From a virus (lineage: Duplodnaviria; Heunggongvirae; Uroviricota; Caudoviricetes): a DNA stretch of 64,000 nt. The notes under the pieces are model-generated. The model searched no databases and was not told the DNA's origin. It saw only the letters and a list, made by a program, of their open reading frames with translations. Below are positions 46,119-63,094 of this stretch, piece by piece. The stretch is taken from IMG/VR virus record IMGVR_UViG_3300044846_005772; one strand, written 5' to 3'. Positions within the stretch are counted from its first letter, which is position 1. Every line of letters starts with the position of its first letter. The position numbers were made by a program, and so were the translations under genes.

Positions 46119-46404
46119 GTTGCTTTCTTTTTATATTATACTCCAGTATTTGAGAAGGATTTTACTACGGAGTAAATCAAAAAATTGTGCTCAAGATTGG
46201 ACTTGCACCAATACGTTCCTTCGAACTCGTTACCTTAGCGTCTACTATCGGGTACTACATGATTACCTCGCTTCCGCCACTTGAGCATATGTAAAACACA
46301 CTCTCAAGCATTCTACTTCCCGCCCCTACACAAATGCGTAGCACGAAATTGTATCTTACTTAGCCCGTCGCTCGCGGTATGGGTACTTGAGTTTATGTGT
46401 TTCG

Positions 46405-46482
46405 TACCCCCTGAGAGACTCGAACTCTCACCCGAAGACTAGATCCTAAGTCTAGCGCGTCTACCGATTCCGCCAAAGGGGC
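46405..46482 (-). tRNA. tRNA-Leu-like (anticodon TAG), class II D-arm
   Basis: GCGGAATCGGTAGACGC D-arm, anticodon arm CTAGA-CTTAGGA-TCTAG, T-arm GAGAG-TTCGAGT-CTCTC, acceptor GCCCCTT/AGGGGGT. The variable region is only ~9 nt. Confidence 0.45.
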
Positions 46483-46692
46483 ATGATGGAAAACTTGGCT
46501 ACCATACGCGTCGATATGGTCAAGAATTGATTGATGGTTGGTTCCCCATCACCTGATGCCGTGCACAGCAGAGCAGGATCTCCTACATAACAACCCGGGG
46601 CATGATTACTCTCCGTTAAGGTTGCGATCCTCTGAGAGCCGGGTTCTCTTTCAACGGTGCTAATCCGTCCTATGTTAGCTGTTTTCCATTTG

Positions 46693-46829
46693 TAGTCAGG
46701 ACAGGAATCGAACCTGCATAAGTGTTACTGTGCTTCGCACTCCATTTGGTTATTATCAGGCTTTGTGTGAGGTCGCATCTCGTGCTAAACTGTTTTACCC
46801 AAATGACGTTACCATTCCGCCACCTGACT
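46693..46829 (-). tRNA. tRNA-like element 1 (class II ends, 137 nt, aberrant core)
   Basis: 5' AGTCAGGTGGCGGAATGGTAACG and 3' CAGGTTCGATTCCTGTCCTGACTA; no canonical anticodon arm is foldable by eye. Confidence 0.3.
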
Positions 46830-46983
46830 ATTTGTTTACTTTATCATTCCAATTACAATGGCTACAATTTCTAACCATGCAATTATTCCAAAAAATATGT
46901 ATGGTAATCTAAAATCATCCCATGTAGGTTTTTTAAATAACAAAAGAACTTTTAATGCTTCAATCATAACATTGTTGTTTTAG

Positions 46984-47085
46984 TAGTCAGGACAGGATTC
47001 GAACCTGTATGAGATGGTCAAAGCTTTCGCTGCATCTTACGTGGAACTTTGCGGGATCCTGCGTCTACCATTCCGCCACCTGACT
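46984..47085 (-). tRNA. tRNA-like element 2 (102 nt)
   Basis: Same ends (GCGGAATGGTAGACGC D-arm, ACAGG-TTCGAAT-CCTGT T-arm). Candidate anticodon arm GGATC-CCGCAAA-GTTCC has a mismatch and C33. Confidence 0.3.
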
Positions 47086-47161
47086 ATGTTGTTTAGTGGG
47101 ACTCATACCACCATGCTTCATTGCCTTGTATCATGTTTTTTGTTTAAGTTAATTTGTTTAG

Positions 47162-47273
47162 TAGTCAGGACAGGATTCGAACCTGTAAATCTCCAAAATA
47201 AAACTATCTCGAGTTCATTTTATTTCTTAAGGAGTCCATTAGATGGAGCGTCTACCAGTTCCGCCACCTGACT
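47162..47273 (-). tRNA. tRNA-like element 3 (112 nt)
   Basis: Same ends; the core contains a TCCAT-CTA-ATGGA hairpin instead of an anticodon arm. Confidence 0.3.
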
Positions 47274-47279
47274 ATTGTT

Positions 47280-47552
47280 TTACTTACTTACGTAATCCAT
47301 CATCTCACGCATCTTAAGAATCAGCAATTCCATCTCATCCTTATTGAGATACATCCTTGAACTTCCAGTCTTGTCGTCTAACTCCTTGGTTTCCACGATA
47401 ATTCCATTGAACCCCTCGGTTGGATATACATCAACGTTCTGCTCTTCAGTTGCGATTACGACTTTGTGCCAAACTTTATTTTTCATAGCTCTATTTTTAT
47501 TAGTAGTCAGGACAGGATTCGAACCTGTAACCGTAGCAGAGACGGTGCACAT
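47280..47552 (-). CDS. hypothetical protein between tRNA-like elements
   Basis: ORF. Confidence 0.4.
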   Translation of the reverse strand: MCTVSATVTGSNPVLTTNKNRAMKNKVWHKVVIATEEQNVDVYPTEGFNGIIVETKELDDKTGSSRMYLNKDEMELLILKMREMMDYVSK

Positions 47553-47590
47553 CGGGAGGAAACAGCGTCTACCAATTCCGCCACCTGACT
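47504..47590 (-). tRNA. tRNA-like element 4 (87 nt, class II length; anticodon loop CTCCCGA)
   Basis: Segment lengths fit a class II tRNA exactly (GCGGAATTGGTAGACGC; variable arm ACCGT-CTCTGCT-ACGGT; discriminator A). The anticodon stem GTTTC/TGTGC pairs poorly. Confidence 0.4.
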
Positions 47591-47593
47591 ATA

Positions 47594-47881
47594 TTATTCG
47601 CTGCACGGCTGGAACCATGCTTCCCGCTGCACGTATCTCTGACTTAGGGACAGCTGATCCAAGGAGAATGACGCCACCTCGGACTCCACTATAGTAAATT
47701 CAAATCCGTCCTGCACATAGGTCTCAACATGCTTTACCTTTCTGCCCAGCTTACTGGGAAAGTAGGGTCCAAAATTACCCAAAGTCCTGTACACGCCAGA
47801 CCCAATCAAAATCTCCTTGGCCTGTTGCATCTCACCAGCCTGTTCAGCACGGCCGTTAACGTATAACTTAGCAGCTCCCAT
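47594..47881 (-). CDS. hypothetical protein (first GC-rich gene)
   Basis: ORF; composition shifts here. Confidence 0.4.
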   Translation of the reverse strand: MGAAKLYVNGRAEQAGEMQQAKEILIGSGVYRTLGNFGPYFPSKLGRKVKHVETYVQDGFEFTIVESEVASFSLDQLSLSQRYVQREAWFQPCSE

Positions 47882-48014
47882 ATCTTTTTACTTTTAACTA
47901 ATATACACAAGTATCCTGCTAGATTAAAAAAGAAAATTGGTTAAATTAGCCAGGTAGCAGAGACCACAATAGAATACCCCTTGATCAGGACAGGTATAGA
48001 GACACCTGGAAAAC

Positions 48015-48072
48015 AAGTGCACCAGCTAGCCAACGTAAGTACACCAGCTGTCAGGAATAAGTGCACCAGCTA
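48015..48072. repeat. three 14-15 bp direct repeats (iteron-like): AAGTGCACCAGCTAG / AAGTACACCAGCTG / AAGTGCACCAGCTAG
   Basis: Read directly; ~22 bp spacing. Confidence 0.75.
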
Positions 48073-48137
48073 GGGGACCCATGCTACACCAGACCAGGCA
48101 GCAGACAGTACCCCGTGTCATGCAACCCTACCTCCGT

Positions 48138-48206
48138 GCCATGTCACCACCATGTCACCACCATGTCACCACCATGTCACCATCATGTCATCGCCATGTC
48201 ATCGCC
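48138..48206. repeat. 11-bp tandem repeat array, about 6 copies of C(A/G)CCATGTCA(C/T)
   Basis: Read directly. ORF-track peptides here (MSPPCHHHV...) are repeat artefacts. Confidence 0.8.
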
Positions 48207-48395
48207 TACAAAAAGCATATACTATTTTGCAAGTATGGGCGCCTCTTACTACGGAGTCCCATTCTGGGTGCCCAGAGGACAACAGGATGCAGCGAGCCTT
48301 GGGGGTAGCGCCTCGAGGGCGATCCATGGCGATCCACCAGGTGTTCCTGCACGGATAAATAACTAAAAGCGCGCGGAGCCGGGACTACGGAGTCC

Positions 48396-49100
48396 GTGCA
48401 GGAGGGCAGAATTATGTACAGGCACGAAGCAGTGGAATACTTGGGGGTCACCTACTCCAAGTTTAGGCGCATGGTGAACAACGGTAACATCAGGTTTACC
48501 GACATGCCGGGTAATCGCAGGATCTATTGGGACGAGGACATCTACCGGGTAGCAGGTAGGCGTAAGGGGCAGAGCGCTAACCAATGCGTGCTCTACTGTC
48601 GGGCCGGCGGCAAACGCGCTAAGACGCTCTTACAGGAACAGAAGCTCCGGTGCACGCGTTGGGCGACCGAGAACGGGTATAGCTTTGACAGGATCTACGA
48701 GGAGTCTGCTCTATCTCAGGACTGGGAAGCCGAACGTCGACCCGCCTTCTACGAGTTACTCAAAGACTGTAGGGACGGTCAGATTAGCATGGTGGTCGTG
48801 GAGACCCCGTGCAGGCTCTCTCGCTGGCACCTGCCCCTCTTCATGAATATCTTGGATTCCTATAACGTGAATCTCTTTATCATCAACAGGCTAGTACAAC
48901 AGCCGGAGTATCTACAGGAACAGGTGGAGGAACTCGTATGGATTACTGAGGAAGCGCAACGACAACGTGAGAATGGCTGGGCGCCGCGCAAGATGCTGGA
49001 GGCGAAGAAGCGCCGTGACAGGGGCCAGGTAATCTGGGCGAAACCCAATCCCGAGATGGGGCACGATCCTGATCAGCACGCGCTTGGCGATCTACTCTAA
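48396..49100 (+). CDS. N-terminal HTH (MerR/excisionase-like) + serine-recombinase-fold domain lacking the catalytic Ser
   Basis: VLYCRAGG in place of YxRVSS. Resolvase-like blocks GYSFDRIYEE, RPAFYELL and ISMVVVETPCRLSR. IS607-TnpA-like domain order. Confidence 0.5.
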   Translation: MQEGRIMYRHEAVEYLGVTYSKFRRMVNNGNIRFTDMPGNRRIYWDEDIYRVAGRRKGQSANQCVLYCRAGGKRAKTLLQEQKLRCTRWATENGYSFDRIYEESALSQDWEAERRPAFYELLKDCRDGQISMVVVETPCRLSRWHLPLFMNILDSYNVNLFIINRLVQQPEYLQEQVEELVWITEEAQRQRENGWAPRKMLEAKKRRDRGQVIWAKPNPEMGHDPDQHALGDLL

Positions 49101-49283
49101 GCCGGGACTACGGAGTCCGCCGGAAACGCGTCCTGCACGGTCGAGCCCCGATTCCCATGGTACAGGAGCCACTACGGAGTCCCGACGGGCAGGGGCCCAG
49201 CTCTCCCGTACGGGCGCCCGCGGGTAGGAGCCAAAAAAAGGGAGCGCTCGGCTCCCATGGGTTTACTACGGAGTAGACTCTAG

Positions 49284-49889
49284 TTATGCTGGAAAGTTCT
49301 TCTTGATCTGACCACGAATGATCCTTTCCTGGGTGTATTCATTGACGTCAGTGATCTCCTCGTTTACTCGACGAGCTAGCTCTGCATCGATGTTGCCGTC
49401 CCATGATCCTTCAACCATCGCGTTGACCAGGCTGTAACTACCCGATATATCTTCGATCGTGTTCTCCCTTTCGTTATTGGTCCAATCAACCGCAACGTTA
49501 AACCAGAAACCTACTGACAGGTACTTCTCGTCGGGATACATTGCATCGAACTCAGCATCTCCTGTCTGGGTGGGAAATACTAGCAGGTCCAAGCCGGCCT
49601 CGCTACTGCTGCTCGATTCGTTTGCCATGTCGGTCAGAGCCGAATCTCCCCATGGACCTTCAACCAGCTCAACTCCTACCAGGGTCAGGTCGTTTGGTAT
49701 GTTGGCCAGGCCCTTCGCGGCATGGATGCATAGTTGATTACACATTTCATTTATCGCATCTCTCTGCTCTTGGCTGAGGTCGTCATGCCAGTTAAGCTGA
49801 TTACCTACTACCTTGAATAGGGTAGGGAAACTAGACCAATCTACGGAGTGGCTCTTCTCGTTCTCCAGGATGGGTTTAATGTACTTCAT
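49284..49889 (-). CDS. hypothetical protein (201 aa)
   Basis: ORF, GC-rich; contains one CTACGGAGTGG motif in frame (HSVD). Confidence 0.5.
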   Translation of the reverse strand: MKYIKPILENEKSHSVDWSSFPTLFKVVGNQLNWHDDLSQEQRDAINEMCNQLCIHAAKGLANIPNDLTLVGVELVEGPWGDSALTDMANESSSSSEAGLDLLVFPTQTGDAEFDAMYPDEKYLSVGFWFNVAVDWTNNERENTIEDISGSYSLVNAMVEGSWDGNIDAELARRVNEEITDVNEYTQERIIRGQIKKNFPA

Positions 49890-49930
49890 TAGTTCTTCTA
49901 TTTGATAATATTTATCTGTTCTATCTAAAC

Positions 49931-49953
49931 AAAGAAAGGGCCCGAAGGCCCTT
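49931..49953 (-). terminator. rho-independent terminator
   Basis: gggcc-cgaa-ggccc with flanking A and T runs. Confidence 0.6.
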
Positions 49954-49970
49954 CCTCTGATTATGATAGG

Positions 49971-51146
49971 TTACAGGTTAGCGTACTGTGCGAATTCCAA
50001 ATCGTATCCTGCACGGGTTCCCTTAGCGAATAGGGTGCCAGCGTCCTGCTTCAGCTCGGCCTTGCCGTTAAGTTCGAAGCCAGAGTTGTTTGATCCCAAG
50101 AAGGTAAGAGAGTTCACAACGTCCCAGATCGACATGCCGGTCTTGACGAAACTCTTCTGCTTCTCTCCCAATCGCATTGGGTCTTGGCCCTTCTGCACGA
50201 TGCGTGCCATTGTACGAGAGTAGCCAGGGAAGTACTGATCCGCGATCGAAGAGTTATAGATCTTCTTCAAATCAGGATCGATCTCGACCAACATGCTCTG
50301 CGACTTACGCATGGCGTTCTCCACTTCCAACAGGCTGGCCTTGGTCTCAACAGCTCGGTTCAAGGTGGAGCCGAATGCAGTCGGTACGAAGCCGGCTTTC
50401 TCCATGTCCCCGATCTTGTTAAGGAAGATCTTAATCTCCTCGGCACTGGTGCCTCCTAAGCGAAAGTTCTCGCTGAAGTTAAGTTCTCTGTTGCCGCCGA
50501 TCGCACCTTGTCCTAGGCTAACCCGTAGGCCATTAGAACATACTAATCGCTGGTTGTATGACTCAGCATAAGTATCACGGTTGGTCTGCACGATCGAGAA
50601 ACCGAACTTAAAGAACTCGTCCTTACCTGCCTGAGCGAAGCCAACTTCCTGGTTGTTCAAGAGGTTCACGCTCACGTTGTTGGTGTAGGGATCCACATCG
50701 ATCGTCTCAATCATCAGGCTCGGAGTGTCGTTCAACAGGCGCTCTGTGATATCGAAGACAGTATCGTTAGAGATCTTACGGAAGTTCTTGGGTGCGCAGA
50801 TATCAACGATCAACTTCGTGTTAGGATTAGCAATCAACATTACTTCGCCCTTGCCCTTCTGCGCACGGTAATCCTTGAGAGCGTTGATCAGGTGCACCGC
50901 GATCTTGTCATCGGAGTTCTTCATGAACTCGCTAGTAAAGCTACGGTTCAACTTCAGCATCGACGCCAAACGATGGAAGAAGGAATCGCTAACGCCCACA
51001 GGAACGCCGCCGATTTCGATCTTACCCTTACGTAGGGAGTCAGATGTCATGTTGATTGAGGAGATGGGCACGATCTTGGTGGCCTTCTCGGTACGGTTAA
51101 GCGTGTCTCGCATTTCCGTAAATTGTTCTTGAGTTACCTGTTTCAT
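49971..51146 (-). CDS. DUF932-like phage/plasmid protein (391 aa)
   Basis: Size and an RLVCSNG motif recalled for DUF932/TIGR03299; from memory only. Confidence 0.4.
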   Translation of the reverse strand: MKQVTQEQFTEMRDTLNRTEKATKIVPISSINMTSDSLRKGKIEIGGVPVGVSDSFFHRLASMLKLNRSFTSEFMKNSDDKIAVHLINALKDYRAQKGKGEVMLIANPNTKLIVDICAPKNFRKISNDTVFDITERLLNDTPSLMIETIDVDPYTNNVSVNLLNNQEVGFAQAGKDEFFKFGFSIVQTNRDTYAESYNQRLVCSNGLRVSLGQGAIGGNRELNFSENFRLGGTSAEEIKIFLNKIGDMEKAGFVPTAFGSTLNRAVETKASLLEVENAMRKSQSMLVEIDPDLKKIYNSSIADQYFPGYSRTMARIVQKGQDPMRLGEKQKSFVKTGMSIWDVVNSLTFLGSNNSGFELNGKAELKQDAGTLFAKGTRAGYDLEFAQYANL

Positions 51147-51219
51147 ATTTTATGATTGATTAGTTTAGTAAATATACTACATTACTATTTATTCTAAAAA
51201 TAAATGCACACCCTTTTTA

Positions 51220-52362
51220 TCAAAGGGTTGCACTCTCTTCCTGCACGGCGGGCTGCTCGTCCTGCTGGGAATCTCCCTCTTGCAGGTCCTCTCCCAACTT
51301 AAAGATCTCCTCGAAGCGGCGGCCCATGTCAACTCGACGAGTCATCTCACTGTTCTCAATCTCTCTCATCTCCTCGGTCTCGTTGAAGCGGTCCACATCG
51401 TACACAACCTGACCTTCTTGTAAGAAGTAGTATAGACGCTTGCCGACCGCACTGCCGCCTCGACGGTTCTTGGAGAACTCGACGTAGCGTTTGCCTGATA
51501 GATCGAATCGGATCTCCAACATCGCTGTGGTTGCGTGCTTGAGGTAGGTTGAGCCGACATATGTACCACCCTTCGTCATGTGTTGGATGGCAAAGACAGC
51601 TGAACCCTTGGTCTCGGCAGAATCGATCATCAAGCCTGTCAACCAAGACTCGGCTCGGGTAGAAGTCCAATGGTGTACTTCCTTGATCTTCACCAACACG
51701 TCCTGATAGGAGTCCAAGATGATGATGTCATAGTCGCCGTTAAACGCCTGTTCCATGATACCCGTTACCTGACCTGACTTCACATAGTCCATCAACAACA
51801 GTGTAGGAACCTTCGCGATGCTTGGCGTCTTCTTGTAATAGAATAAGATATCGTTGCGTGTCATCTCGCTGGAGATGTACAACACTCTAGCATCGGGCTG
51901 CTGTTCCTGAATGCTGGCGATCATGTCCAACATTACGGTTGACTTACCGACACCGGACTCACCGATAACGATATTCACGGTGCCGCCATATGTGCCGCCG
52001 CCTTCCTCATGATCGGAGAACAGGTCGTCGATCTTCTTGCCAGTTCGATAGAGCTTGAAGTTGGGAAACTCCATGTCCTCTACTGTTACTACATTGAGAG
52101 TCAAAGGTTCTTGTGGGACTACGGAGTGAATGACCCCTGGTGCAGCTGCTGGCTCGAGACGCTCCTGGCCGATATGACCTTCTGTGACAATCTTCTTCAA
52201 GACTCCATTAAAGGATGAGTAGCTGATGTCCGCATCGGGCATGTGAGATACGATCTGAGCATGCAGATCCAACACCTTGCCTCTTGGCACTAGTCCATTG
52301 TGTACGTCGTTGAACCATTGACGGATAACCTGTTCCTTTTTACCACCTGTGATTTGTATCAT
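51220..52362 (-). CDS. RecA-fold ATPase (DnaB-C-terminal / AAA_25-like)
   Basis: Walker A GESGVGKST and Walker B IIILDSYQD. Confidence 0.55.
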   Translation of the reverse strand: MIQITGGKKEQVIRQWFNDVHNGLVPRGKVLDLHAQIVSHMPDADISYSSFNGVLKKIVTEGHIGQERLEPAAAPGVIHSVVPQEPLTLNVVTVEDMEFPNFKLYRTGKKIDDLFSDHEEGGGTYGGTVNIVIGESGVGKSTVMLDMIASIQEQQPDARVLYISSEMTRNDILFYYKKTPSIAKVPTLLLMDYVKSGQVTGIMEQAFNGDYDIIILDSYQDVLVKIKEVHHWTSTRAESWLTGLMIDSAETKGSAVFAIQHMTKGGTYVGSTYLKHATTAMLEIRFDLSGKRYVEFSKNRRGGSAVGKRLYYFLQEGQVVYDVDRFNETEEMREIENSEMTRRVDMGRRFEEIFKLGEDLQEGDSQQDEQPAVQEESATL

Positions 52363-52420
52363 ATTCTTAGAGTTATTAAGTTATTGAGCTAATATACAAC
52401 GAAAAATTGGGAAAGTACAA

Positions 52421-52924
52421 CTATTTGGTGAGAAATTCCAAACGTTGTTTCTGTGCGGGCGAGAGCTTCTCGAAACTTCCAACCTCGTTCAGGATGTCTA
52501 GCAACTCGTCAAGGTCCAACTCGCAAGTCTCGTTCTCTACTACGGAGTGGCTGGCTTCGGGCTGCTCGCCCTTGCTCGCATCAGCTACTCTACCTCTGAG
52601 CTCGTCGACCGCATCGCAACCTCCTTTGAAGAAAGCATCGACCACGTTCTCGACAATATCTAAAGTTGCGAAGTTATATCCATTACGGGAGTTGGCATCG
52701 AATGCAACGACTGGCAAGATATCGTTATGTTCAGCAGCGACGTTACGGAATATCTCAGCACATTCTGACGGGCTGAATTCCGTTTCTACTAAGCTCAACA
52801 CTCCGCCTGGGAAAGGAAGGCCTACTGCCTTGTCGAGACTGCCTTGAGTGATTGTTGTCATCGCAACAACATCTCCACTTAGGGGAGTGTCTACCCCAAA
52901 TCTGAAAATTACTACTTTGTTCAT
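52421..52924 (-). CDS. hypothetical protein (167 aa)
   Basis: ORF. Confidence 0.5.
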   Translation of the reverse strand: MNKVVIFRFGVDTPLSGDVVAMTTITQGSLDKAVGLPFPGGVLSLVETEFSPSECAEIFRNVAAEHNDILPVVAFDANSRNGYNFATLDIVENVVDAFFKGGCDAVDELRGRVADASKGEQPEASHSVVENETCELDLDELLDILNEVGSFEKLSPAQKQRLEFLTK

Positions 52925-54402: not shown

Positions 54403-55116
54403 TTATTTAGACATTACTTCCAATGCGCTCTTCGCGATCTGACAAACACGGATCTGAGTAAGACCGAATTCCTCAGCAACTTCAGCGCTGCTACGTGGCT
54501 CCTCATAGCCGATGCCGTACAGCATCTTCATGATAGCATGGTCACGATCCTTGAGGCGAGCTAATCGACGTTTCAACTCATGATCAACAAACTCGTCATT
54601 GATCACGTGATAGATATCGGGTTGACAGTTAGCATAACGTTCGCCGACCGTCGTCTCGCTGTCTTCTGAGATGGGCGCATCCAATTGTACAGGTCGGAAG
54701 TTGGGTGTTTCCAAACCCGCTTTCTTCTTCTTGTAAACATCGTATTCCTGATTCATGGGAATCCTAACGATTTTACCGACGGTCGCGACCGCCTCGTTAC
54801 AGTGCTTGCGAATCCATAGACTGGCATAGGTAGAAAATCGTGTATCTCTATCTGCGGTAAAACGTTCAGCTGCTGCGATCAGACCCAAGTTACCTTCTTG
54901 GATTAGGTCATCGATTGGAACGCCCTGACCGATAAATCGATTGGCGATCTTCACCACCAACTTTAGGTTATGACGAACTAATTCGTCCACCGCACGACGA
55001 TCGCCGGTCTGGATTCTAGCAGCTAGTGCATGCTCTTCTTCCTTGCTAAGAGGAGATAATCCCTTAATGGTCTTGAAATATTTTGGAAGACCTTCTGTTG
55101 ATTCGAATTTAGACAT
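54403..55116 (-). CDS. RNA polymerase sigma factor, sigma-70 family (regions 2, 3, 4)
   Basis: Region 2 DLIQEGNLGLIAAAERF...FSTYASLWIRK; region 4 SSAEVAEEFGLTQIRVCQIAKSALEVM. Confidence 0.8.
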   Translation of the reverse strand: MSKFESTEGLPKYFKTIKGLSPLSKEEEHALAARIQTGDRRAVDELVRHNLKLVVKIANRFIGQGVPIDDLIQEGNLGLIAAAERFTADRDTRFSTYASLWIRKHCNEAVATVGKIVRIPMNQEYDVYKKKKAGLETPNFRPVQLDAPISEDSETTVGERYANCQPDIYHVINDEFVDHELKRRLARLKDRDHAIMKMLYGIGYEEPRSSAEVAEEFGLTQIRVCQIAKSALEVMSK

Positions 55117-55729: not shown

Positions 55730-55951
55730 TTACGCAGTGATCTTGCGGCGACCTACCATTTTGTAAGCTGCGTTTACGATCTCGTTGCTTGGGTTGTTGC
55801 TCTCTCCTCTGAGAACGCGAGCCACATGCGACTTGTCATAGCCAGTTCTTACTGCTAATTCTGCGATGTCGCCACGACGTAGGCGAACTGATACTGCTGC
55901 TCTCTTCTCATTTACTGAAGTAGAGCTTTTCATTGTTGCTGTTTTCTTCAT
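55730..55951 (-). CDS. small putative DNA-binding (HTH-like) protein
   Basis: GDIAELAVRTGYDKSHVARVLRG helix-turn-helix-like segment. Confidence 0.4.
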   Translation of the reverse strand: MKKTATMKSSTSVNEKRAAVSVRLRRGDIAELAVRTGYDKSHVARVLRGESNNPSNEIVNAAYKMVGRRKITA

Positions 55952-56081
55952 AATACTTAAATAGTTAATGTATTATCTTATACTACAACAAGTTAAAAGG
56001 TTTTACTACGGAGTAGATAATTTTCTATTTTCCGGGCCAGGTAAAGAACATGTTTAACTATCAGTTTACTACGGAGTAACC

Positions 56082-56255
56082 TTAGTCTTCCTGGGAATAG
56101 CGATACTTCTTACGACTATACGCTCGTGGGTTGGGTTCGCTGCGCTGCCTGAACCTGCCGTCTAGGGCTCCTTGTTCCAGCATCTGCTGGCGCTGTGCTG
56201 TACGGGCAGCCGCTACTTGATTCCAACTTCCAGTTATTTTAATCTTGCGTTTCAT
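56082..56255 (-). CDS. small basic protein (57 aa), not in ORF track
   Basis: MKRKIKITGSW...; last gene of a three-gene operon. Confidence 0.3.
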   Translation of the reverse strand: MKRKIKITGSWNQVAAARTAQRQQMLEQGALDGRFRQRSEPNPRAYSRKKYRYSQED

Positions 56256-56266
56256 GATACACTTAT

Positions 56267-56491
56267 TTATTCTCCAGTTACTAGTATCTCGTCACCACCG
56301 ACTATGACAGTTGTACCTAGGATATCGTCGATAAAGAGAATCTCGCCTGATTCTGTCTCGAACAGGAAGTCATCGCTCCATTCAGCACCATCCATCTCTC
56401 TAAAAAGATTCGCGATTTCTTCCGGTTCGCCGTAGACCTGCTCGTGCCCCCAGTTATCTAGGGTTTCAGTTATCTTGATTATCTTGTGCAT
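56267..56491 (-). CDS. hypothetical acidic protein (74 aa)
   Basis: ORF. Confidence 0.45.
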   Translation of the reverse strand: MHKIIKITETLDNWGHEQVYGEPEEIANLFREMDGAEWSDDFLFETESGEILFIDDILGTTVIVGGDEILVTGE

Positions 56492-56492
56492 A

Positions 56493-56762
56493 TCAATTAG
56501 TTGTTTGGGTTACTACTAATATTAATGCCTCCTGACCCGAACTCAACGAGCGCCATGCTCCTTTTTCCAGGTCAAAGAATCTTACGCTCGCGTCGGTTGA
56601 TGTACCATTACCATTGGGTCGTAATGTTTCCGGAATCATGGAAAGATTCACGGTTCCCACCGCCGTGCGTAAAGTGCCATCCAACTTGCGGAAGGCAAAT
56701 GTTACTGCACCTTCTCTGAGTCTTGCTCTTAGTGCGTCCTTGCTGATTTCTTGAAATACCAT
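56493..56762 (-). CDS. hypothetical protein (89 aa)
   Basis: ORF directly downstream of a module. Confidence 0.45.
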   Translation of the reverse strand: MVFQEISKDALRARLREGAVTFAFRKLDGTLRTAVGTVNLSMIPETLRPNGNGTSTDASVRFFDLEKGAWRSLSSGQEALILVVTQTTN

Positions 56763-56924
56763 ACTTATATTGTTTAGAAGTTATAAGTAAATATAAACTG
56801 ATAATTTTAAAAAGTACAACGTTTTTGAAAATAAGTTTCCTGCACGGACTCCACCCGGCAAGCATGGGATCCCGGCCCGTGCAGGAGAGACCTCATGAAA
56901 AAAGGGACCGAAGTCCCTTTAGTC
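56763..56924 (-). promoter_or_regulatory. complete module copy 4: promoter (variant A) + CCTGCACGG-29 nt-CCGTGCAGG hairpin + GGGAC-CGAA-GTCCC terminator
   Basis: Read directly. Confidence 0.7.
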
Positions 56925-56943
56925 AAGTTATGTAAGATATACA

Positions 56944-57243
56944 TTATACTAACTCCTTCACCGATTCCAGATACTTCTCGATCTTCTTGAGATAGCTGAC
57001 AGCTGATCGCTTGTCCGGAAAGTATGCCCACATCTGACAGGATTCGGAATCCCAAGTAATGTTCTCCGGACTTCCGACCTTCTCCTTCAGGTGATCTTCA
57101 ACATCGTACGCGCTCCCATAGTCTCGGAAGCGGTATTCAGGTTTTGGCGAGCCAGTTAGTGACCAGCTCTTACCGTTGTTAGAGTAGCCGTCGTTGTAGA
57201 TAACGAATCCGGTCTTTGAAACGATTTCTTCTTGTTTTTTCAT
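56944..57243 (-). CDS. hypothetical protein (99 aa; start corrected to MKKQEE)
   Basis: The track extension translates the module. Confidence 0.45.
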   Translation of the reverse strand: MKKQEEIVSKTGFVIYNDGYSNNGKSWSLTGSPKPEYRFRDYGSAYDVEDHLKEKVGSPENITWDSESCQMWAYFPDKRSAVSYLKKIEKYLESVKELV

Positions 57244-57328
57244 GACTATATTATTTAGAGTTATAGTGTAAATATAACACGACTCTAGTAAATTGGTACT
57301 CACAAGTGAAACTATTCTTCCTGCACGG
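57244..57328 (-). promoter_or_regulatory. module copy 5 (variant B: gtaaattggtactcacaagtgaaactattcttcctgcacgg)
   Basis: Read directly; left hairpin arm only. Confidence 0.55.
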
Positions 57329-57348
57329 TCGCTCCCCGACAAGCTTCT

Positions 57349-57615
57349 TTACTCCTCCCCTTCAGGAAAGAGCTTAGCCCAGCCAGCTGGAGAAATGCCG
57401 GAGATCACGAACTCTCTATTCTCTGCGGGCTCGTTTCCCAAGCAAGTATAGATTCTTTCTCCTAGGCAGAATCTGCGCAGACCTTCGGTTGGCATCTCGC
57501 ATTCCCATTCCTTGCCAGTAATTACGCATTTACCCCAAACTCGTGAGTGAGTCTCATTGATTGGGGTGTAGAATCTCTCATCCACGAGAGATAGGGGATA
57601 ATCTTTATTTTCCAT
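57349..57615 (-). CDS. hypothetical protein (88 aa)
   Basis: ORF. Confidence 0.45.
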   Translation of the reverse strand: MENKDYPLSLVDERFYTPINETHSRVWGKCVITGKEWECEMPTEGLRRFCLGERIYTCLGNEPAENREFVISGISPAGWAKLFPEGEE

Positions 57616-57790
57616 GTTTAATTGTTTCTTTTGGTTGGCCTATTGTGTCGTCGTCAAATGCAGGTTCCAAAGTTGTTGGGTCTACCCATACTGAATCCTG
57701 CATGGAAGTTTCTCGTGAAATCCCGGGCTTGTCGAGGGGCACGCTCGTGCAGGAAGCAAGTATAATTGACAGTGTAATAATTCTAATCAT
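57605..57790 (-). CDS. small lipoprotein (61 aa)
   Basis: MIRIITLSIILASC lipobox. Confidence 0.4.
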   Translation of the reverse strand: MIRIITLSIILASCTSVPLDKPGISRETSMQDSVWVDPTTLEPAFDDDTIGQPKETIKHGK

Positions 57791-57824
57791 AAGATAATAA
57801 TACTAAATAATCAAGCTAATTAAA

Positions 57825-57849
57825 AGAAAAATGGGAACTAACGTTCCCA
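57825..57849 (-). terminator. rho-independent terminator
   Basis: tgggaac-taac-gttccca with A-run upstream on the + strand. Confidence 0.6.
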
Positions 57850-57889
57850 TCCTCTTAACTCTAAAACATATATAACTAATCAACAAACA

Positions 57890-58243
57890 TTAGTTCCAGG
57901 TAATCTCGGCTCGATTTGCCTTGATCTTGATCTCAGCTCCTTCCTTCAAGGTAACTGATCCGAATGGGGTGTTCATCGTCCATGCAGGAGCAGATGCAGT
58001 AGTTACTGATCTTTTGCGTGGGGCACGACTTACTTTTGTTGTCTCTTTATATTCTACAATCAAACCCGCTTTCTTCATCTTGCTGATGTGTGAATACACG
58101 GTTTGGCGAGAGACTTTTAGAAGGTCTGCGATTACAGGAGCTTTTACACCTGTTCCGACCATGATTGCGATTTGACGGCGAGCGTCTTCAACTTGAGCAC
58201 GAGTGCTGCGATTTCTTCTTGTTTGATTAGTAATTTTTTTCAT
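57890..58243 (-). CDS. HTH transcriptional regulator-like protein
   Basis: VIADLLKVSRQTVYSHISKMKKAGLI helix-turn-helix. Confidence 0.5.
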   Translation of the reverse strand: MKKITNQTRRNRSTRAQVEDARRQIAIMVGTGVKAPVIADLLKVSRQTVYSHISKMKKAGLIVEYKETTKVSRAPRKRSVTTASAPAWTMNTPFGSVTLKEGAEIKIKANRAEITWN

Positions 58244-58311
58244 GACTTTAAATTATGAATTAAATATACTATAGTTTCTCACCAGATTAAAATAAATTTA
58301 CTACGGAGTAG

Positions 58312-58845
58312 CTATATTTCATCCTCTTCTTCAAAAGCTTCGTCAAGATCGGCCTGCCCTGAAGCTGAATATCCTTCTTCCAAGATGTTGTATAATCTGT
58401 GGCACTCGTCGATTCTCCATTTCTCGGTGGCCGCTTGGATTCCGTCCAACAACTCGTCGGTCAGGTCCTCATGCTCCTCGCTATCGATGTTCATGCTACA
58501 CGTCATCTCGTGAGAGTATCGACTTGTGCTGCGCTCCGACGAGATAAGAAGATTCTCAAACAGGAGTTCCAACAACTTCTCCATCTCCTCATCCATCGGC
58601 AGGACCTTATGTAAATTGTATCTAGCTGTGAACTCTCGCGGATCTATCGACGAGCCTTCGCCCTTCCAATACTCGCTCTCAATTAAATACGTAAGAAATT
58701 GCTTGTTTACGACATCGCGTGCATCAAAGGTAAAGCTTGCGCCGTCACCTTGGCTCCAAAAGCCCGTGAACTGCACGTCGTCTACATCCACGCCTACCAT
58801 AAACATGGTTGCTTTAAAGTCAGTGATGTATTCATCGTACCACAT
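58312..58845 (-). CDS. acidic hypothetical protein (possible DNA-mimic/anti-restriction-like)
   Basis: Strongly acidic, DEAFEEEDEI C-terminus; no family assigned. Confidence 0.45.
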   Translation of the reverse strand: MWYDEYITDFKATMFMVGVDVDDVQFTGFWSQGDGASFTFDARDVVNKQFLTYLIESEYWKGEGSSIDPREFTARYNLHKVLPMDEEMEKLLELLFENLLISSERSTSRYSHEMTCSMNIDSEEHEDLTDELLDGIQAATEKWRIDECHRLYNILEEGYSASGQADLDEAFEEEDEI

Positions 58846-59006
58846 AGTTATATTGTTTAGAAGTTATGAGTAAATATAAAACGATAATCTTAAAAAGTAC
58901 AACGTTTCCGAAACTAAATTTCCTGCACGGCCGAGATCCCGGTTTTGGGGCGGCCGACCATGCAGGAGAGCTCACAAAGAAAAAGGGACGCAAGGCCCCT
59001 TCATCA
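58846..59006 (-). promoter_or_regulatory. module copy 6 (variant A) + hairpin (cctgcacgg/ccatgcagg) + imperfect GGGAC terminator
   Basis: Read directly. Confidence 0.65.
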
Positions 59007-59021
59007 GTAAAGCCAATTAGA

Positions 59022-59435
59022 CTATTCCTTCAACGCATCAATCACTCTCATTGGCATCTTAGAGGATCCATACGCAGCCGCAACCAACCACTCTCCTTCC
59101 TGTGTGAATAGGTAGCCGAACTCCTCAATATCTCCCTTAAAGAATTCTAGCACTGACTTGTGCGTTTGCTGGCTAAACTCCTCACCACGATCCCGGTGGT
59201 ACGCGACAGTAACGCCACCTTCTGGGTTAGAGAAGTTGTGAGGTCCACTAGGCTCTAGTCTCTCTTGCAGGGAACTTAGACTTCCCAACGCGATTAGGGC
59301 CTTCACCTTTTCAGGGGTGTTGTAATGGTCTATTAAAGTTTGACCATTGTGAGATGGGTAGCCATCCCAGTGACAGTAGATAGAAACGACGGTCTTGTCT
59401 TCCATCTCCATTGCGATTCTTGAGCGTGTTGCCAT
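59022..59435 (-). CDS. hypothetical protein (137 aa; start corrected to MATRSR)
   Basis: The track extension translates the module. Confidence 0.45.
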   Translation of the reverse strand: MATRSRIAMEMEDKTVVSIYCHWDGYPSHNGQTLIDHYNTPEKVKALIALGSLSSLQERLEPSGPHNFSNPEGGVTVAYHRDRGEEFSQQTHKSVLEFFKGDIEEFGYLFTQEGEWLVAAAYGSSKMPMRVIDALKE

Positions 59436-59596
59436 AGTTATTATTATTTTAGAATTATAGAGTAAATATAAAATGAAAAAATGGAAAAGTACAACGTTTG
59501 CGAAACTATTTTTCCTGCACGGGCACTTTCCCGGCCTAGCACGGATTACAGCCCGTACAGGAGTGCTCACAAGAAAAAAGGGACCAAAGTCCCTTT
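59436..59596 (-). promoter_or_regulatory. module copy 7 (variant A) + hairpin + GGGACC-AAA-GTCCC terminator
   Basis: Read directly. Confidence 0.65.
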
Positions 59597-59617
59597 TCAA
59601 TATATTACTATTAAGAA

Positions 59618-60289
59618 TTACAGAGCAAGTCTTCTATTAAGATCAGATCTTCTAATATAGATGTATGGGAAATCCCAGTTTGCACCATTCCATTCTGCTA
59701 CTTTGACAGTTCCACCATCCTTAGTTGGGCACTCATGAAGATCTATTTGATTGCTTCCAGGAGATCCTGACCAAACTTCATCTTGCCAAATTTCCTTACT
59801 GTTACAGCTTGACATCTTAGCATAGTATTCATTAAACTCCCAACCTTCATCATTAGCAAGATCAGGATGACCTACTATGATAGGATCATAATCATCATTC
59901 CAATCAATTAAGCAAACAATATCTTCTGGGCTTGCACCAAGAGTATCAGCAATAGCTCTGAAACCTGATTTAACTGATTCGATTTCATCATCTTCAGCAT
60001 CAGGTCCAAGGTTTTGAATAGCCTCTTCCTCATTTTCGATCAAGTTTTGAAGATCTAAAAAATCAGTATCAACTTGGATTGATTGTGGATTATCAATATC
60101 ATTAGCATCAACCTCAAATGTTCCATTCTTTGAACACCCAATTGTATACATAGCTTTTCCACTTTTAGAAAAATACACATTATCTATTCTACAGGTATCA
60201 CCATCAAAGAAATCAACATAATCACCTATTGAGAATTTGTGTGAGTTACTTTCATTTAAGAAGTTTTCAAATGTTTGTAAATGTTTCAT
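59618..60289 (-). CDS. hypothetical protein with N-terminal MKHLQTFENFLNE motif
   Basis: ORF. Confidence 0.5.
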   Translation of the reverse strand: MKHLQTFENFLNESNSHKFSIGDYVDFFDGDTCRIDNVYFSKSGKAMYTIGCSKNGTFEVDANDIDNPQSIQVDTDFLDLQNLIENEEEAIQNLGPDAEDDEIESVKSGFRAIADTLGASPEDIVCLIDWNDDYDPIIVGHPDLANDEGWEFNEYYAKMSSCNSKEIWQDEVWSGSPGSNQIDLHECPTKDGGTVKVAEWNGANWDFPYIYIRRSDLNRRLAL

Positions 60290-60472
60290 ACTTAATTTTT
60301 TAGTTATTTATTTTTTAGTTATAGAGTAAATATAATATGACTTCTGTAAATTGGTACTCACAAGTGAAACTATTCTTCCTGCACGGGCGGAGTAGTGCAG
60401 ATGTCAAGCAACTGAAACAATTGCGACCGTGCAGGAGAGACCTCATGAAAAAAGGGACTCATCGTCCCTTTT
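60290..60472 (-). promoter_or_regulatory. module copy 8 (variant B) + CCTGCACGG-40 nt-CCGTGCAGG hairpin + GGGAC-TCATC-GTCCC terminator
   Basis: Read directly. Confidence 0.7.
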
Positions 60473-60496
60473 CCATTACTACGGAGTAGCCCGTTT

Positions 60497-60895
60497 CTAC
60501 TCCTCGTTCTGGACAAACGCCTTATGTCCCCAGTGAGTGGCTCCTACGAAAGCATACTGGTGCTGATTGTACAGGTTGGTGTTGTACCATTTATCGTTGA
60601 TGTCTCCCACCGTGATTTGAGAGAGCAACTGCTCATCCGCAATCACAACCTTCTTGCCCTTCATCGCAAACACGGTTAACCAGAAATCAAAGCCGTCCTC
60701 GTCGGGCTGGAACTGAATCGTCTGGATCGTTCCTTTCTTATAGGCTCTGAATACATGGTACACATCTCGTTCCATGCAATCAACTGCCGTTAGAAAGCCT
60801 GCCTTGACCTTGATGATCGCTCTGAACTTGCCTGAGCGACCTTTGATTTGGTTGACCGCATTGATGTCGCGAATTAATACTTTTAAATTTTTCAT
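60497..60895 (-). CDS. hypothetical protein (132 aa; start corrected to MKNLKV)
   Basis: The track extension translates the module. Confidence 0.45.
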   Translation of the reverse strand: MKNLKVLIRDINAVNQIKGRSGKFRAIIKVKAGFLTAVDCMERDVYHVFRAYKKGTIQTIQFQPDEDGFDFWLTVFAMKGKKVVIADEQLLSQITVGDINDKWYNTNLYNQHQYAFVGATHWGHKAFVQNEE

Positions 60896-61054
60896 GTCTT
60901 TATTTTTTAGAGTTAAGTAAATATAACACGATAATCTTAAAAAGTACAACGTTTCCGAAATTAAATTTCCTGCACGGGCTCTCCCCGGCTAGCAGGCCAG
61001 CAAACACCGTGCAGGAGAGCTCACAAGAAAAAAGGGACCGGTTTGGTCCCTTTA
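60896..61054 (-). promoter_or_regulatory. module copy 9 (variant A) + hairpin + GGGACC-GGTTT-GGTCCC terminator
   Basis: Read directly. Confidence 0.7.
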
Positions 61055-61072
61055 CTGTTACTACGGAGTAAG

Positions 61073-61279
61073 CTAATCCTGCCCGTCCAAGAAGTCTAGG
61101 ATCTCTTCCACCTCTGCTGGATCGTCCACTTCGTACCCGTCCTTGGTTCTAACTTCCGTGTCAATGATCTTGTCGCGCTCATCATAGTAATCCTTTACGA
61201 CCACTACTGATCCTGAATCGAGCTGCACACGGCTTTCGACCATCTTAACCACCTGCGTTGTCTTGCTTAGTAATTCCAT
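61073..61279 (-). CDS. hypothetical acidic protein (68 aa)
   Basis: ORF. Confidence 0.4.
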   Translation of the reverse strand: MELLSKTTQVVKMVESRVQLDSGSVVVVKDYYDERDKIIDTEVRTKDGYEVDDPAEVEEILDFLDGQD

Positions 61280-61303
61280 GTTGATTAGTTTAATTGGTTA
61301 TTA

Positions 61304-61528
61304 TTATCTTTCAAGTATCACGAACGATCCAAATTCTCGATCAAACACCTTGATCAGGTTCTCGTAATCGGATGACATCATCTCGGCATTGATTTCTCCT
61401 CTCTTCTTTGGATCCCAGCCAAGTTGCTTGCCAAAGTCGTTTGCCATGCCGAGTAGCACGAACGCGTTTCCGTCGGGCCCAGTCAGGTCAATCACGATCT
61501 GCTTGTTCTCTTGCTTTTTTCTAATCAT
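61304..61528 (-). CDS. hypothetical protein (74 aa)
   Basis: ORF. Confidence 0.4.
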   Translation of the reverse strand: MIRKKQENKQIVIDLTGPDGNAFVLLGMANDFGKQLGWDPKKRGEINAEMMSSDYENLIKVFDREFGSFVILER

Positions 61529-61683
61529 ATCGCGTGCATGTTAGAGATTATTACTTCTGCCTCCTCAAGGCTTTTTACAGGGATGAGTTGGCCCGCACCC
61601 ACAACGTAATGTCCGTCCCATATGGTAAGGGTTCGTGGAGGCCCGCTTGTGTCGATGGTGATCCCATCAGAAAATCTTAGCAT
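61525..61683 (-). CDS. small hypothetical protein (52 aa; start corrected to MLRFSDG)
   Basis: The track extension translates the module. Confidence 0.35.
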   Translation of the reverse strand: MLRFSDGITIDTSGPPRTLTIWDGHYVVGAGQLIPVKSLEEAEVIISNMHAI

Positions 61684-61843
61684 AGTTATGTTGTTTAGAA
61701 TTATAGAGTAAATATAAACTGAAATAATTAAAAAGTACAACGTTTTTGAAATTAAATTTCGTGTACGGTCGTTCCAAGACAAGCTTGCCGGGAGACGCCG
61801 TGCAGGAGTACTCACCCTAAAAAAGGGACCAAAGTCCCTTTTT
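61684..61843 (-). promoter_or_regulatory. module copy 10 (variant A) + degenerate hairpin + GGGACC-AAA-GTCCC terminator
   Basis: Read directly. Confidence 0.65.
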
Positions 61844-61846
61844 CAA

Positions 61847-62269
61847 TTAGTCAATAGTTAGCATGAATGCGGTGCCGTCCCAATCGTCCGGTATTTCTAT
61901 CTCATCAAGCTCCTTCACAAACTTCTCTGCTGTCTTAATAAGTTGTTCACGGGTATTAACCTTAGATATATTAAAGAAAATTATCTTGTCATTGACTGAT
62001 GAATACAACTCAAGATCGGGACCAGTGTCTGCATCTCCATCTACCGTACGTGATACTTTACTTCCCTGTTCCGCGTCATTTGCGAACTTTAGGATTCTTT
62101 CTGCGACTCCACGCAACTTTGATAATGAATCGATTTCGCCAAGATCAATCTTCTTTGTGGATTTGCCTGCCGTAATCTCAAGATAGTCATGAGATATTTC
62201 ATTAACAAACTCATTTCCTCTGTGTCCTTCATTAATAAATTCTGAAAAATTCTTAATTTCCATTGTCAT
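61847..62269 (-). CDS. hypothetical protein with N-terminal KNFSEFINE motif
   Basis: ORF. Confidence 0.5.
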   Translation of the reverse strand: MTMEIKNFSEFINEGHRGNEFVNEISHDYLEITAGKSTKKIDLGEIDSLSKLRGVAERILKFANDAEQGSKVSRTVDGDADTGPDLELYSSVNDKIIFFNISKVNTREQLIKTAEKFVKELDEIEIPDDWDGTAFMLTID

Positions 62270-62353
62270 AGTTATTTGTTTTAGTTATAGAGTAAATATA
62301 AACTGAAATAATTAAAAAGTACAATGTTTCCGAAACTAAATTTCCTGTACCGC

Positions 62354-63025
62354 TTAGCCATGGTGCCACTCCGCGGAGAGCTCTTGCAGGAGAGTTCCGA
62401 AAGAATCGATGAATAATTCAAGGTCACCAACTGGTAGGGCTCTCACCGTATCCCGAGTGCTATGACATCGACTCCAATTGCTCAGGTCAGGAGAACCATC
62501 CTCATGCACCGGACATGGCTGGACTAGGCACGCGTTTAATCCCTTACGGCGAAGTACGACTGAGTCGTTGAATGGAACCTTTACCCTTGGGGCGGAGCTT
62601 AGTCTCTCAATCGCCTCGCCGATTTCCGAATCGCAATAGCCGACTAGCCAATGATCTCCTCCCTCACCGGCAAGTTCGAGGTTAATAATCCATTCTACAT
62701 CGGGTCCGCTCTGAGACCAGGACAGGGCGCCCAACCCACCCACTTCCTCGTGGTCAAAGATAACACAGCTGAGCCAGGGATTGCGGCGGACTAACTCCAA
62801 GCAGGCGATGCAGGCCGCCGAGTTATCGTTCGCGTTCTCGCTCTTTGGATTCACTATATCCCAGTGCGCGCTGATCCAGTACGGTCCATCACCGATCACA
62901 AGATTCAACGACCCGTCCTGGTCAAGGATTCTAGGTCTAAGACCCAAGCAACGCGCGGAGCGAACGATATGTTCTAGCCTGTTCTTGGATTTACATAAGC
63001 TGCGGAGTCTCTCTCTTATCTTCAT
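62354..63025 (-). CDS. hypothetical protein (223 aa); its 3' end overlaps a decayed module copy
   Basis: ORF. Confidence 0.45.
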   Translation of the reverse strand: MKIRERLRSLCKSKNRLEHIVRSARCLGLRPRILDQDGSLNLVIGDGPYWISAHWDIVNPKSENANDNSAACIACLELVRRNPWLSCVIFDHEEVGGLGALSWSQSGPDVEWIINLELAGEGGDHWLVGYCDSEIGEAIERLSSAPRVKVPFNDSVVLRRKGLNACLVQPCPVHEDGSPDLSNWSRCHSTRDTVRALPVGDLELFIDSFGTLLQELSAEWHHG

Positions 63026-63094
63026 AATTATTATTATACTAAATGGCCCTCCTAAATTTCAGAAGGGCCAATGTGATCACTACGGAGTGGACTC

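Follow-up and report, generated by a model that had tools for sequence, protein, structure and literature searches.

What purpose is served by a ten-nucleotide word that recurs along one part of a phage genome, always in the same orientation? The question is raised by a 64,000-nucleotide (nt) stretch of the Caudoviricetes record IMGVR_UViG_3300044846_005772, analysed here at its full length (the window), in which the decamer ACTACGGAGT is present in 14 exact copies on the + strand, spanning 46164–63088. Shuffled sequences gave 0.07 copies on average and at most one. No copy is found on the opposite strand across the whole window (a ratio of 14:0), and none lies in its first 46 kb. Copies with a single mismatch are scarce in the window, with only two, at 49840 (TCTACGGAGT) and 39507 (ACTTCGGAGT). 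A preliminary description of this DNA had reported the 14 same-strand copies and their absence from the first 46 kb and from the reverse orientation, and our count agrees, apart from two misprinted positions (52538 and 56058 for 52539 and 56068). It had further interpreted the decamer as a tetraloop hairpin with co-varying flanks. We find a real, conserved and functional element, which the hairpin label misdescribes; most likely, it is a docking site for a phage protein.

The genes between 44 and 64 kb lie nearly all on the − strand, so that the decamer in gene sense reads ACTCCGTAGT. Because the early genes are on this strand, the ‘gene ends’ and ‘5′ leaders’ to which copies had been assigned are to be read in the opposite sense. 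Related loci were fetched through two genes of the region, one for a sigma-70-family factor and one for a protein resembling the transposase TnpA (TnpA-like). The element is present in about 40 related freshwater large-phage contigs of 80–270 kb, always co-oriented with the early genes. Counted without redundancy, its 8-mer core has 308 copies on the majority strand against 8 on the opposite one; a reverse-orientation copy in one relative, L110, is a single coding occurrence at chance level. Across 123 non-redundant copies, the ten core positions are fixed except for a G or C at position 6, and the flanks prefer G or T at −2 and −1 and A or C at +1 and +2. In gene sense the element is a box of about 14 bp, KK-ACTCC[G/C]TAGT-MM, with the decamer as its invariant core. 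It comes in two clade-specific forms, ACTCCGTAGT and ACTCCCTAGT, and a few genomes carry both. One-mismatch variants are rare across the relatives, and near-identical metagenome contigs retain every decamer copy. Relatives of 125–270 kb include IMGVR_UViG_3300043568_002650 and IMGVR_UViG_3300027759_000046, and SRR27428180, SRR27420550 and SRR35754619 are among the samples in which this phage is present.

Information content falls to about zero beyond ±2 nt, and no other conserved position and no −10/−35 partner is found within ±40 nt of the box in the 123 copies. The decamer is thus an independent short element, as had been supposed, and not part of a longer duplicated segment. Promoter cassettes of about 160 nt, described below, are repeated in the same region, and the decamer is not one of their components. 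Nor does the box look like a host genomic repeat, a Chi site or an uptake sequence: among the matches listed for one 14-mer version of it, the species genomes gave only sporadic single matches and the bacterial genomes no phage-like cluster. A literature search for the words returned only unrelated matches, such as Widom 601 DNA.

Is the box read as RNA or as DNA? The proposed hairpin rested on flanks that appeared to change in a compensatory manner (ttt…aaa, ggg…ccc). In the 123 copies, Watson-Crick pairing of the flanks does not exceed that of shuffled columns (P = 0.07 at ±1, 0.19 at ±2 and 0.92 at ±3), and the apparent covariation results from the K/M flank preference plus local base composition. 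By itself the decamer has a folding energy of 0.0 kcal/mol, and the minimum-energy fold contains the ACT/AGT stem in 28–51 of the 123 copies (23–41%), fewer than half on either strand. No Rfam match was found at or near the boxes. A hairpin with covariation was therefore rejected.

The position of the boxes relative to genes and terminators also bears on this question. Intergenic copies make up 56% of the total, compared with about 18% non-coding sequence in the box-bearing span. They lie at the upstream-gene side of junctions, both before and after terminators; a stop codon ends 1–9 nt ahead of about 19 of 70 intergenic copies, many copies are 1–120 nt upstream of the next open reading frame (ORF), and in tight junctions only the box separates the stop codon from the next ATG. 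Six window copies follow a stop codon by 2–9 nt, and in four of these an intrinsic terminator begins 6–8 nt past the box. In gene sense, on the − strand as for all boxes below, these four are 49265–49274 (9 nt past the stop of gene 49284–49889, 8 nt before the terminator 49256–49240), 60478–60487 (9 nt past the stop of gene 60497–60949, 6 nt before the terminator 60471–60451), 61060–61069 (3 nt past the stop of gene 61073–61279, 6 nt before the terminator 61053–61031) and 63079–63088 (6 nt past the stop of gene 63095–63382, 8 nt before the hairpin 63070–63044). The other two are 56068–56077, 4 nt past the stop of gene 56082–56255, and 58300–58309, 2 nt past the stop of gene 58312–58845. Elsewhere, box 46164–46173 is located between the tRNA cluster and gene 45918–46118, and box 56005–56014 is upstream of gene 55730–55951. 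In the window the box precedes the terminator, whereas in the relatives the order is reversed: in 22 of 136 copies a terminator hairpin with its T-tract ends no more than 24 nt ahead of the box, and 5 boxes stand just before a terminator. Boxes past T-tracts would rarely be transcribed, and the absolute orientation of the boxes is unchanged inside the one gene on the opposite strand, to which they are therefore antisense. An RNA processing or stability hairpin, one of the roles suggested earlier, is unlikely for these reasons.

The box is also found inside genes. Three window copies, one of them a one-mismatch copy, lie in three unrelated − strand genes and share the frame xAC TCC GTA Gxx. They read cAC TCC GTA G(T/A)n and encode H-S-V-V at 52118–52127 (amino acids 79–82 of a RecA-like ATPase), H-S-V-V at 52539–52548 (amino acids 126–129 of a 167-amino-acid protein) and H-S-V-D at 49840–49849 (gene sense ACTCCGTAGA, in gene 49284–49889). 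The A-to-T variant of the last copy is the first member of 57-bp pairs in one relative, L206. Box 52118 marks the border between a variable N-terminus and the conserved ATPase core; its position is kept in relatives while its surroundings diverge. The shared frame had been taken as evidence that the nucleotide motif is selected over the protein. The frame itself is as described, but the coincidence is uninformative, since one frame holds a TAG stop and agreement of three out of three has a chance of about 1 in 4. The claim is borne out instead by relatives: in the TnpA-like gene, a box at +195/+197, on the former catalytic loop, is present in both clades, where it reads GTTES in the first and VLGSR in the second. 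Two reading frames at one site indicate that the nucleotide word is conserved and not the peptide. A further box at +140 of the same gene encodes LLGSR.

We asked how the boxes are arranged relative to each other. They are confined to the early gene cluster (about 20 kb in the relatives), which ends near the right-hand end of the window; in 22 loci, the interval from 3 to 10 kb past the TnpA-like gene contains none. Among non-redundant neighbours, 29 pairs are spaced at 56–58 bp and 9 at 63–64 bp; other distances are scattered, and none is shorter than 56 bp. The window has a 64-bp pair, with 49107–49116 first and 49171–49180 second, and a 63-bp pair, with 56068 first and 56005 second. Paired boxes are direct repeats whose intervening sequences show neither relatedness from pair to pair nor a common predicted fold, and the spacing rule holds in AT-rich spacers, in GC-rich arrays of four to five boxes and in coding sequence. 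A fixed spacing with neither sequence nor fold in common speaks for a protein complex bound to duplex DNA and against an RNA structure. Taken together, the post-terminator copies, the fixed orientation in the antisense gene, the lack of covariation and the fixed spacing lead us to infer that the box is read as DNA.

Which protein could read it? The boxes are most crowded around the TnpA-like gene (48411–49100, +), the only + strand gene in the early cluster. In 22 loci, some of which are near-duplicate contigs, 69 copies fall between −500 and +500 of its start, a density about 10-fold higher than elsewhere in the cluster, and they form arrays of 2–5 boxes. In the relatives, the gene has arrays or pairs within it as well as 5′ and 3′ to it. 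Five of the 14 window boxes fall within a GC-rich island (47900–49275; about 53–57% GC versus about 43% around it; conserved in relatives) on both sides of the gene, at −163, −27, +696, +760 and +854 relative to its start. Box 48248–48257 is within the island 163 nt 5′ of the start, box 49107–49116 is 7 nt beyond the stop, and boxes 49171–49180 and 49265–49274 follow 3′ of the gene. Box 48384–48393, 27 nt 5′ of the ATG, lies between the arms of an inverted repeat, CCTGCACGG and CCGTGCAGG, and downstream of GATAAATA, a T4-type late-promoter-like element (48354–48361, +) that is kept in 14 of 16 relatives. This copy had been placed 12 nt before the ATG of a gene starting at 48396; more precisely, 2 nt separate its end from a GTG at 48396, and 17 nt separate it from the first ATG, at 48411.

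The TnpA-like protein (229 amino acids) consists of an N-terminal MerR/Xis-like helix-turn-helix (HTH) and a serine-recombinase fold in which the catalytic serine is replaced (YCRAGG). Pfam identifies Resolvase and HTH_17 domains. Its best sequence matches in the PDB are catalytic domains from TnpA proteins belonging to the IS607 family (3lhk, 3lhf and 3ilx), and its AlphaFold2 model, with a predicted local distance difference test (pLDDT) score of 74, has 3lhf, 3lhk, 3ilx, 6dgc and 6dgb as top Foldseek matches. The nucleophilic serine of the Y-x-R-V-S motif aligns to a glycine in the window protein. The family has 84 database matches; of these, 23 sequences were examined (11 aligned relatives and 12 further members), and the serine is absent from the canonical position in all of them. 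In every box-bearing relative the gene is single-copy and found at the same place in the same antisense orientation, with 24–37% protein identity. Because it is syntenic in all relatives, it is a resident gene and not a mobile insertion, and no TnpB-sized ORF lies next to it. A recent insertion of an insertion sequence (IS) was likewise rejected as the cause of the GC-rich island, as gene and island are both syntenic. The loss of the serine throughout the phage family, the synteny and the antisense orientation suggest, from sequence comparison, a domesticated transposase. Boxes are present at every locus that has the gene. Conversely, three loci that carry the sigma factor (44–45% identity) have neither boxes nor the module formed by the RecA-like ATPase, a 391-amino-acid protein and the TnpA-like protein.

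IS607-family TnpA binds multiple 9-bp directly repeated motifs beside its own gene, spaced 10–11 bp apart, and bridges two DNA segments (PMC6188088). The IS607-family proteins of IS1535, IS607 and ISC1926 have the same architecture and fold as the window protein, an N-terminal winged HTH followed by an IS607-type catalytic domain, and in both systems short direct repeats (9–10 bp) flank the gene on both sides. The differences are that the box-linked gene lacks the catalytic serine, is single-copy and syntenic and has no TnpB, and that the boxes are 57 bp apart, keep one orientation and are dispersed by the dozen over 20 kb.

Based on these observations, we tentatively favour a reading in which the box is an oriented double-stranded DNA site bound by the domesticated IS607-type TnpA-like protein (48411–49100). 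A disabled descendant of TnpA would still bind its motif, which would have spread through the early cluster as single boxes and 57-bp pairs. Oligomers of the protein, possibly expressed from the T4-type late promoter, would occupy single boxes, pairs at 56–58 bp (less often 63–64 bp) and the control region of their own gene. Since every box points the same way, the effect of the bound complex would probably be polar, exerted on a machine that moves along DNA. In the simplest case this machine would be the RNA polymerase on the early genes, with late shut-off or insulation of early units as the result; alternatively, it could be a replication fork. Asymmetric protein sites that recur throughout a domain in one orientation are placed at the ends of transcription or replication units in Tus-Ter, RTP-Ter and TTF-I/Sal-box. 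The likeness to these polar barriers is a functional analogy, with no sequence or protein homology. The full proposal is more doubtful than the binding itself: a catalytically dead, late-expressed IS607 TnpA and co-oriented boxes, placed singly and in 57-bp pairs at early-gene 3′ ends and in the gene's own control region, may form a polar barrier or architectural system that silences or insulates the early cluster. In a variant of it, the boxes would be programmed strand-specific nicks that serve as sliding-clamp-loading ‘enhancers’ of T4-type late transcription.

Several points weigh against assigning the box to this protein. The candidate partner was chosen by proximity and co-occurrence within one phylogenetically coherent group, and the RecA-like ATPase and the 391-amino-acid protein co-occur with the box as strictly as the TnpA-like gene does. 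The clade-specific G/C variant of the box tracks the protein clade but also the overall phylogeny. In L206, the most divergent member, no box lies within 2.3 kb of the TnpA-like gene, although dispersed 57-bp pairs are kept. IS607 motifs are spaced at 10–11 bp and not at 57 bp. A simple DNA-binding protein does not require co-orientation of about 40:1 over 20 kb, so that the polar process is an added assumption, and ten nearly invariant positions would be expected of a nuclease or nickase site more than of a transcription-factor site.

The region around the boxes has its own architecture. Genes in the window include those for a T4-type portal, a family-B DNA polymerase and a sigma-70-family factor, together with a tRNA cluster; a 117-amino-acid HTH protein is encoded at 57890–58243. 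At both the DNA and the protein level, the window is matched best by contigs of uncultivated freshwater phages, and searches of the phage collection with either kind of sequence found no cultured relative. The GC content steps from about 33–37% in the first 42 kb to 42–53% in the early cluster, with a peak of 53–57% at 48–49.3 kb. About 12 copies of a unit of about 160 nt occupy intergenic positions between 53199 and 63776 of the window (near 53.2, 55.1, 55.4, 56.8, 58.9, 59.5, 60.4, 60.9, 61.7, 62.3, 63.3 and 63.7 kb). In − strand order, the unit consists of a terminator (AAAGGGAC..GTCCCTTTTTT), an inverted repeat with a 9-bp stem (CCTGCACGG-(17–40 nt)-CCGTGCAGG) and a promoter-like sequence, GTTGTACTTT…TTATATTTAC, also written GTTGTAC…TATATTTAC. 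Such combinations of terminator, inverted repeat and early promoter resemble the promoter-early stem-loop (PeSL) regulatory cassettes of T4-type hyperplastic regions, reportedly described by Arbiol and colleagues in 2010. The decamer is separate from them: most cassettes lack it, it can stand before or after the terminator, and it is also found in genes and in cassette-free arrays. Strain-level gene insertions and deletions (L001 and L003 versus the window) are bounded by these units and not by the box.

The sigma-70-family factor (54403–55116, −) contains regions 1.2, 2 and 4. Its homologues, with 41–51% identity, are found in many freshwater large-phage contigs, some of them entirely without the box. 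The conserved neighbours of the TnpA-like gene are the RecA/DnaB-like P-loop ATPase (51220–52362, −), which carries the conserved in-gene box, and the 391-amino-acid protein (49971–51146, −), which has no family or fold match and whose 315 database matches are all metagenomic. Upstream of the TnpA-like gene, 48015–48073 and 48139–48201 contain iteron-like repeats, with AAGTGCACCAGCTAG present three times at 22-bp spacing in this area; a tandem of 5.7 copies of CCATGTCACCA ends at a promoter-like ATGTCA-16-TATACT on the + strand. The T4-type late-promoter word NATAAATA stands just upstream of the TnpA-like gene, here as in 14 of 16 relatives, and also ahead of many genes in the first 44 kb of the window. 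ATAAATA, the core of the T4 late promoter TATAAATA, is found 15–60 nt upstream of many start codons, for example at 16435, 18724, 19467, 21255, 23398, 38178 and 41230 (−), at 3527 and 48355 (+) and at 49909 and 51186 (−). As it precedes the genes for a 201-amino-acid protein, the 391-amino-acid protein and the TnpA-like protein inside the ‘early’ cluster, these three may be late genes. The tRNA cluster (46404–47590, −) comprises several genes of 88–137 nt with nearly identical 5′ and 3′ arms (…TAGTCAGGACAGGATTCGAACCTG…) and long internal inserts. Rfam calls tRNAs at 46693–46829 and 46984–47085, both of which ARAGORN misses, and a tRNA look-alike at about 47160–47275 is called by neither. Between two of the tRNA genes, 46526–46587 (−) is a full-length match to the Rfam ‘freshwater-1’ RNA at gathering score (72.1 bits).

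Could the box be a site for cutting or copying DNA rather than for stable binding? The closest published signature is that of Pseudomonas phage tf, whose nick site, 5′-TACT/RTGMC-3′, is an invariant 9-mer with 14 copies on one strand, 11 of them in the early half; several coincide exactly with gene junctions, very few variants with one mismatch exist, and related phages have a one-base variant (PMC3517423). The statistics of the box are nearly the same. The nick sites of tf/LUZ24-like phages, of phiKMV-like phages (5′-CGACNNNNNCCTA/CTCCGG-3′) and of T5 are, like the box, short invariant words on one strand, with about 14 per genome, enrichment in the early half and scarce one-mismatch variants. 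A phage nickase acting at the box on a single strand of mature or late DNA could possibly relax the early region, seed recombination or load the sliding clamp in a T4-like phage. Invariance at ten positions and strict polarity suit a nuclease, and spacing, strand bias and post-terminator copies fit a nick as well as a binding site. Of about 30 metagenomic contig ends in the region, 5 lie within 50 nt of a box (the ends of L002 and L005 and the starts of L003, L014 and L030), a marginal tally made by eye, against a chance expectation of about 7%; problems of assembly could account for it, and so could genuine DNA ends or nicks. Nevertheless, we consider localized nicking, a main rival that the preliminary description had also listed as a single-strand nick site, unlikely. 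The nick-site phages are podoviruses and T5, and the box phage, known from assembled sequence alone, is a T4-like large myovirus. Only ACTCCG is shared with the phiKMV consensus CGACNNNNNCCTACTCCGG, a six-base overlap that could be chance, and neither TACTRTGMC nor RGCGCRGG matches. No nickase candidate was found in the window, and the TnpA-like protein lacks its nucleophile. Whereas the nicks of tf and T5 are genome-wide, the box is limited to one 20-kb cluster, and nicking leaves this confinement, the 57-bp pairing and the arrays piled around one gene unexplained. A role in replication initiation has a clearly lower probability. The boxes would be iteron-like sites, the TnpA-like protein an origin-binding initiator beside the RecA/DnaB-like ATPase, and the dispersed boxes polar fork barriers or titration sites. 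Regularly spaced direct-repeat arrays beside and inside the TnpA-like gene are in keeping with this idea, as initiator boxes lie within the initiator's own gene in the lambda O gene; so are the ATPase as a conserved neighbour with a conserved in-gene box and the other short tandem repeats that adjoin the GC-rich island. No initiator or primase domain is recognisable, however, no AT-rich unwinding element was identified, most boxes are scattered at gene junctions far from the array, and T4-type phages rely mainly on recombination-dependent replication. The least probable role is that of a recombination or mobile-element site that shuffles early genes, be it an integron-like cassette core, a repetitive extragenic palindromic (REP) or bacterial interspersed mosaic element (BIME) served by an HUH/RAYT enzyme, or the ends or targets of IS607-like mini-elements. 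The boxes do lie at gene-cassette boundaries in a hyperplastic region, in association with a transposase-derived gene; their pseudo-palindromic half-sites (KKACT/AGTMM) surround an asymmetric centre, as in recombinase core sites; and within 30–100 nt of a box, break-points in the alignments of relatives show a 2.5- to 3-fold enrichment. This enrichment is inseparable from the intergenic location and is expected of any intergenic feature. The associated recombinase lacks its nucleophile in every family sequence examined, the strain insertions and deletions are bounded by the promoter cassettes, and the bacterial genomes among the matches listed have no phage-like cluster, as noted above. Unlike integron attC sites, which have inverted core sites (R″/R′) and are served by the tyrosine recombinase IntI, the paired boxes are direct repeats, and the ORFs scanned yielded no tyrosine recombinase. 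REP/BIME elements share with the box the form of short, repeated, mostly intergenic words with partial dyad symmetry, but they alternate in orientation and belong to bacterial chromosomes; the phage box has a single orientation and no stable palindrome, and no HUH/Y1 transposase gene was detected among about 38 window ORFs scanned with Pfam or PHROGs. The REP/BIME-RAYT role put forward in the preliminary description is thus not supported.

Two further explanations invoke transcription and its products. The box could be a single-element promoter in gene sense, used by host RNA polymerase with the phage sigma factor (54403–55116) or by another phage polymerase in a second (middle) wave of transcription of the early-region genes, with the T4 late (TATAAATA) and T4 MotA-box promoters as models. 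It is short, invariant, strand-specific, mostly intergenic and co-oriented with the genes; many copies precede the next ORF at close range, 22 come right after a terminator, where a new transcription unit could start, and a sigma-70-family gene lies inside the cluster. We regard this as improbable because a strong terminator hairpin follows four window copies by 6–8 nt, arrays of 4–5 copies at 57 bp and in-coding pairs would be odd for promoters, and the three loci described above retain a sigma factor without any box. No box stands ahead of the replication or structural genes in the first 46 kb of the window. As for the geometry of known promoters, there is no conserved partner within ±40 nt for a −35/−10 or MotA-box arrangement, TATAAT-like boxes being found at variable distances of 22–40 nt, and the T4 late promoter role is taken by NATAAATA, a different word. 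Still less credit, about as little as we give the replication-initiation role, is due to an RNA element in early mRNAs (ACUCCGUAGU), whether a site for an endoribonuclease, for processing or for stability, or a hairpin that binds a protein where cistrons meet; RegB sites in T4 and RNase III sites in T7 early RNA would be parallels. The box is sense to nearly all cluster genes, is limited to early transcripts, often follows stop codons directly and can be the sole element between a stop codon and the next ATG, all of which would suit such a role. It is countered by the 22 copies just beyond terminator T-tracts, by the flipped order of box and terminator between the window and its relatives, and by the densest arrays, which are antisense to and upstream of the sole opposite-strand gene. 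The lack of covariation, stable fold and Rfam matches, and a fixed 57-nt spacing with no conserved intervening structure, argue in the same direction.

The box is a new member of the strand-specific phage DNA recognition words, and one with an unusually concrete candidate reader protein. Such words, among them the nick sites of T5, phiKMV and tf, have been without a known function for about 50 years. The comparative data for the box are unusually rich: about 40 related genomes carry hundreds of copies, the box has two allelic forms and a strict 57-bp pairing, and there is a candidate reader. If the pairing of box and TnpA-like protein is true, it would be a clear case, in a prokaryotic virus, of a transposase that was domesticated while its binding sites spread as a cis-regulatory network, and it would add a further layer of control to early-to-late switching in T4-type phages.

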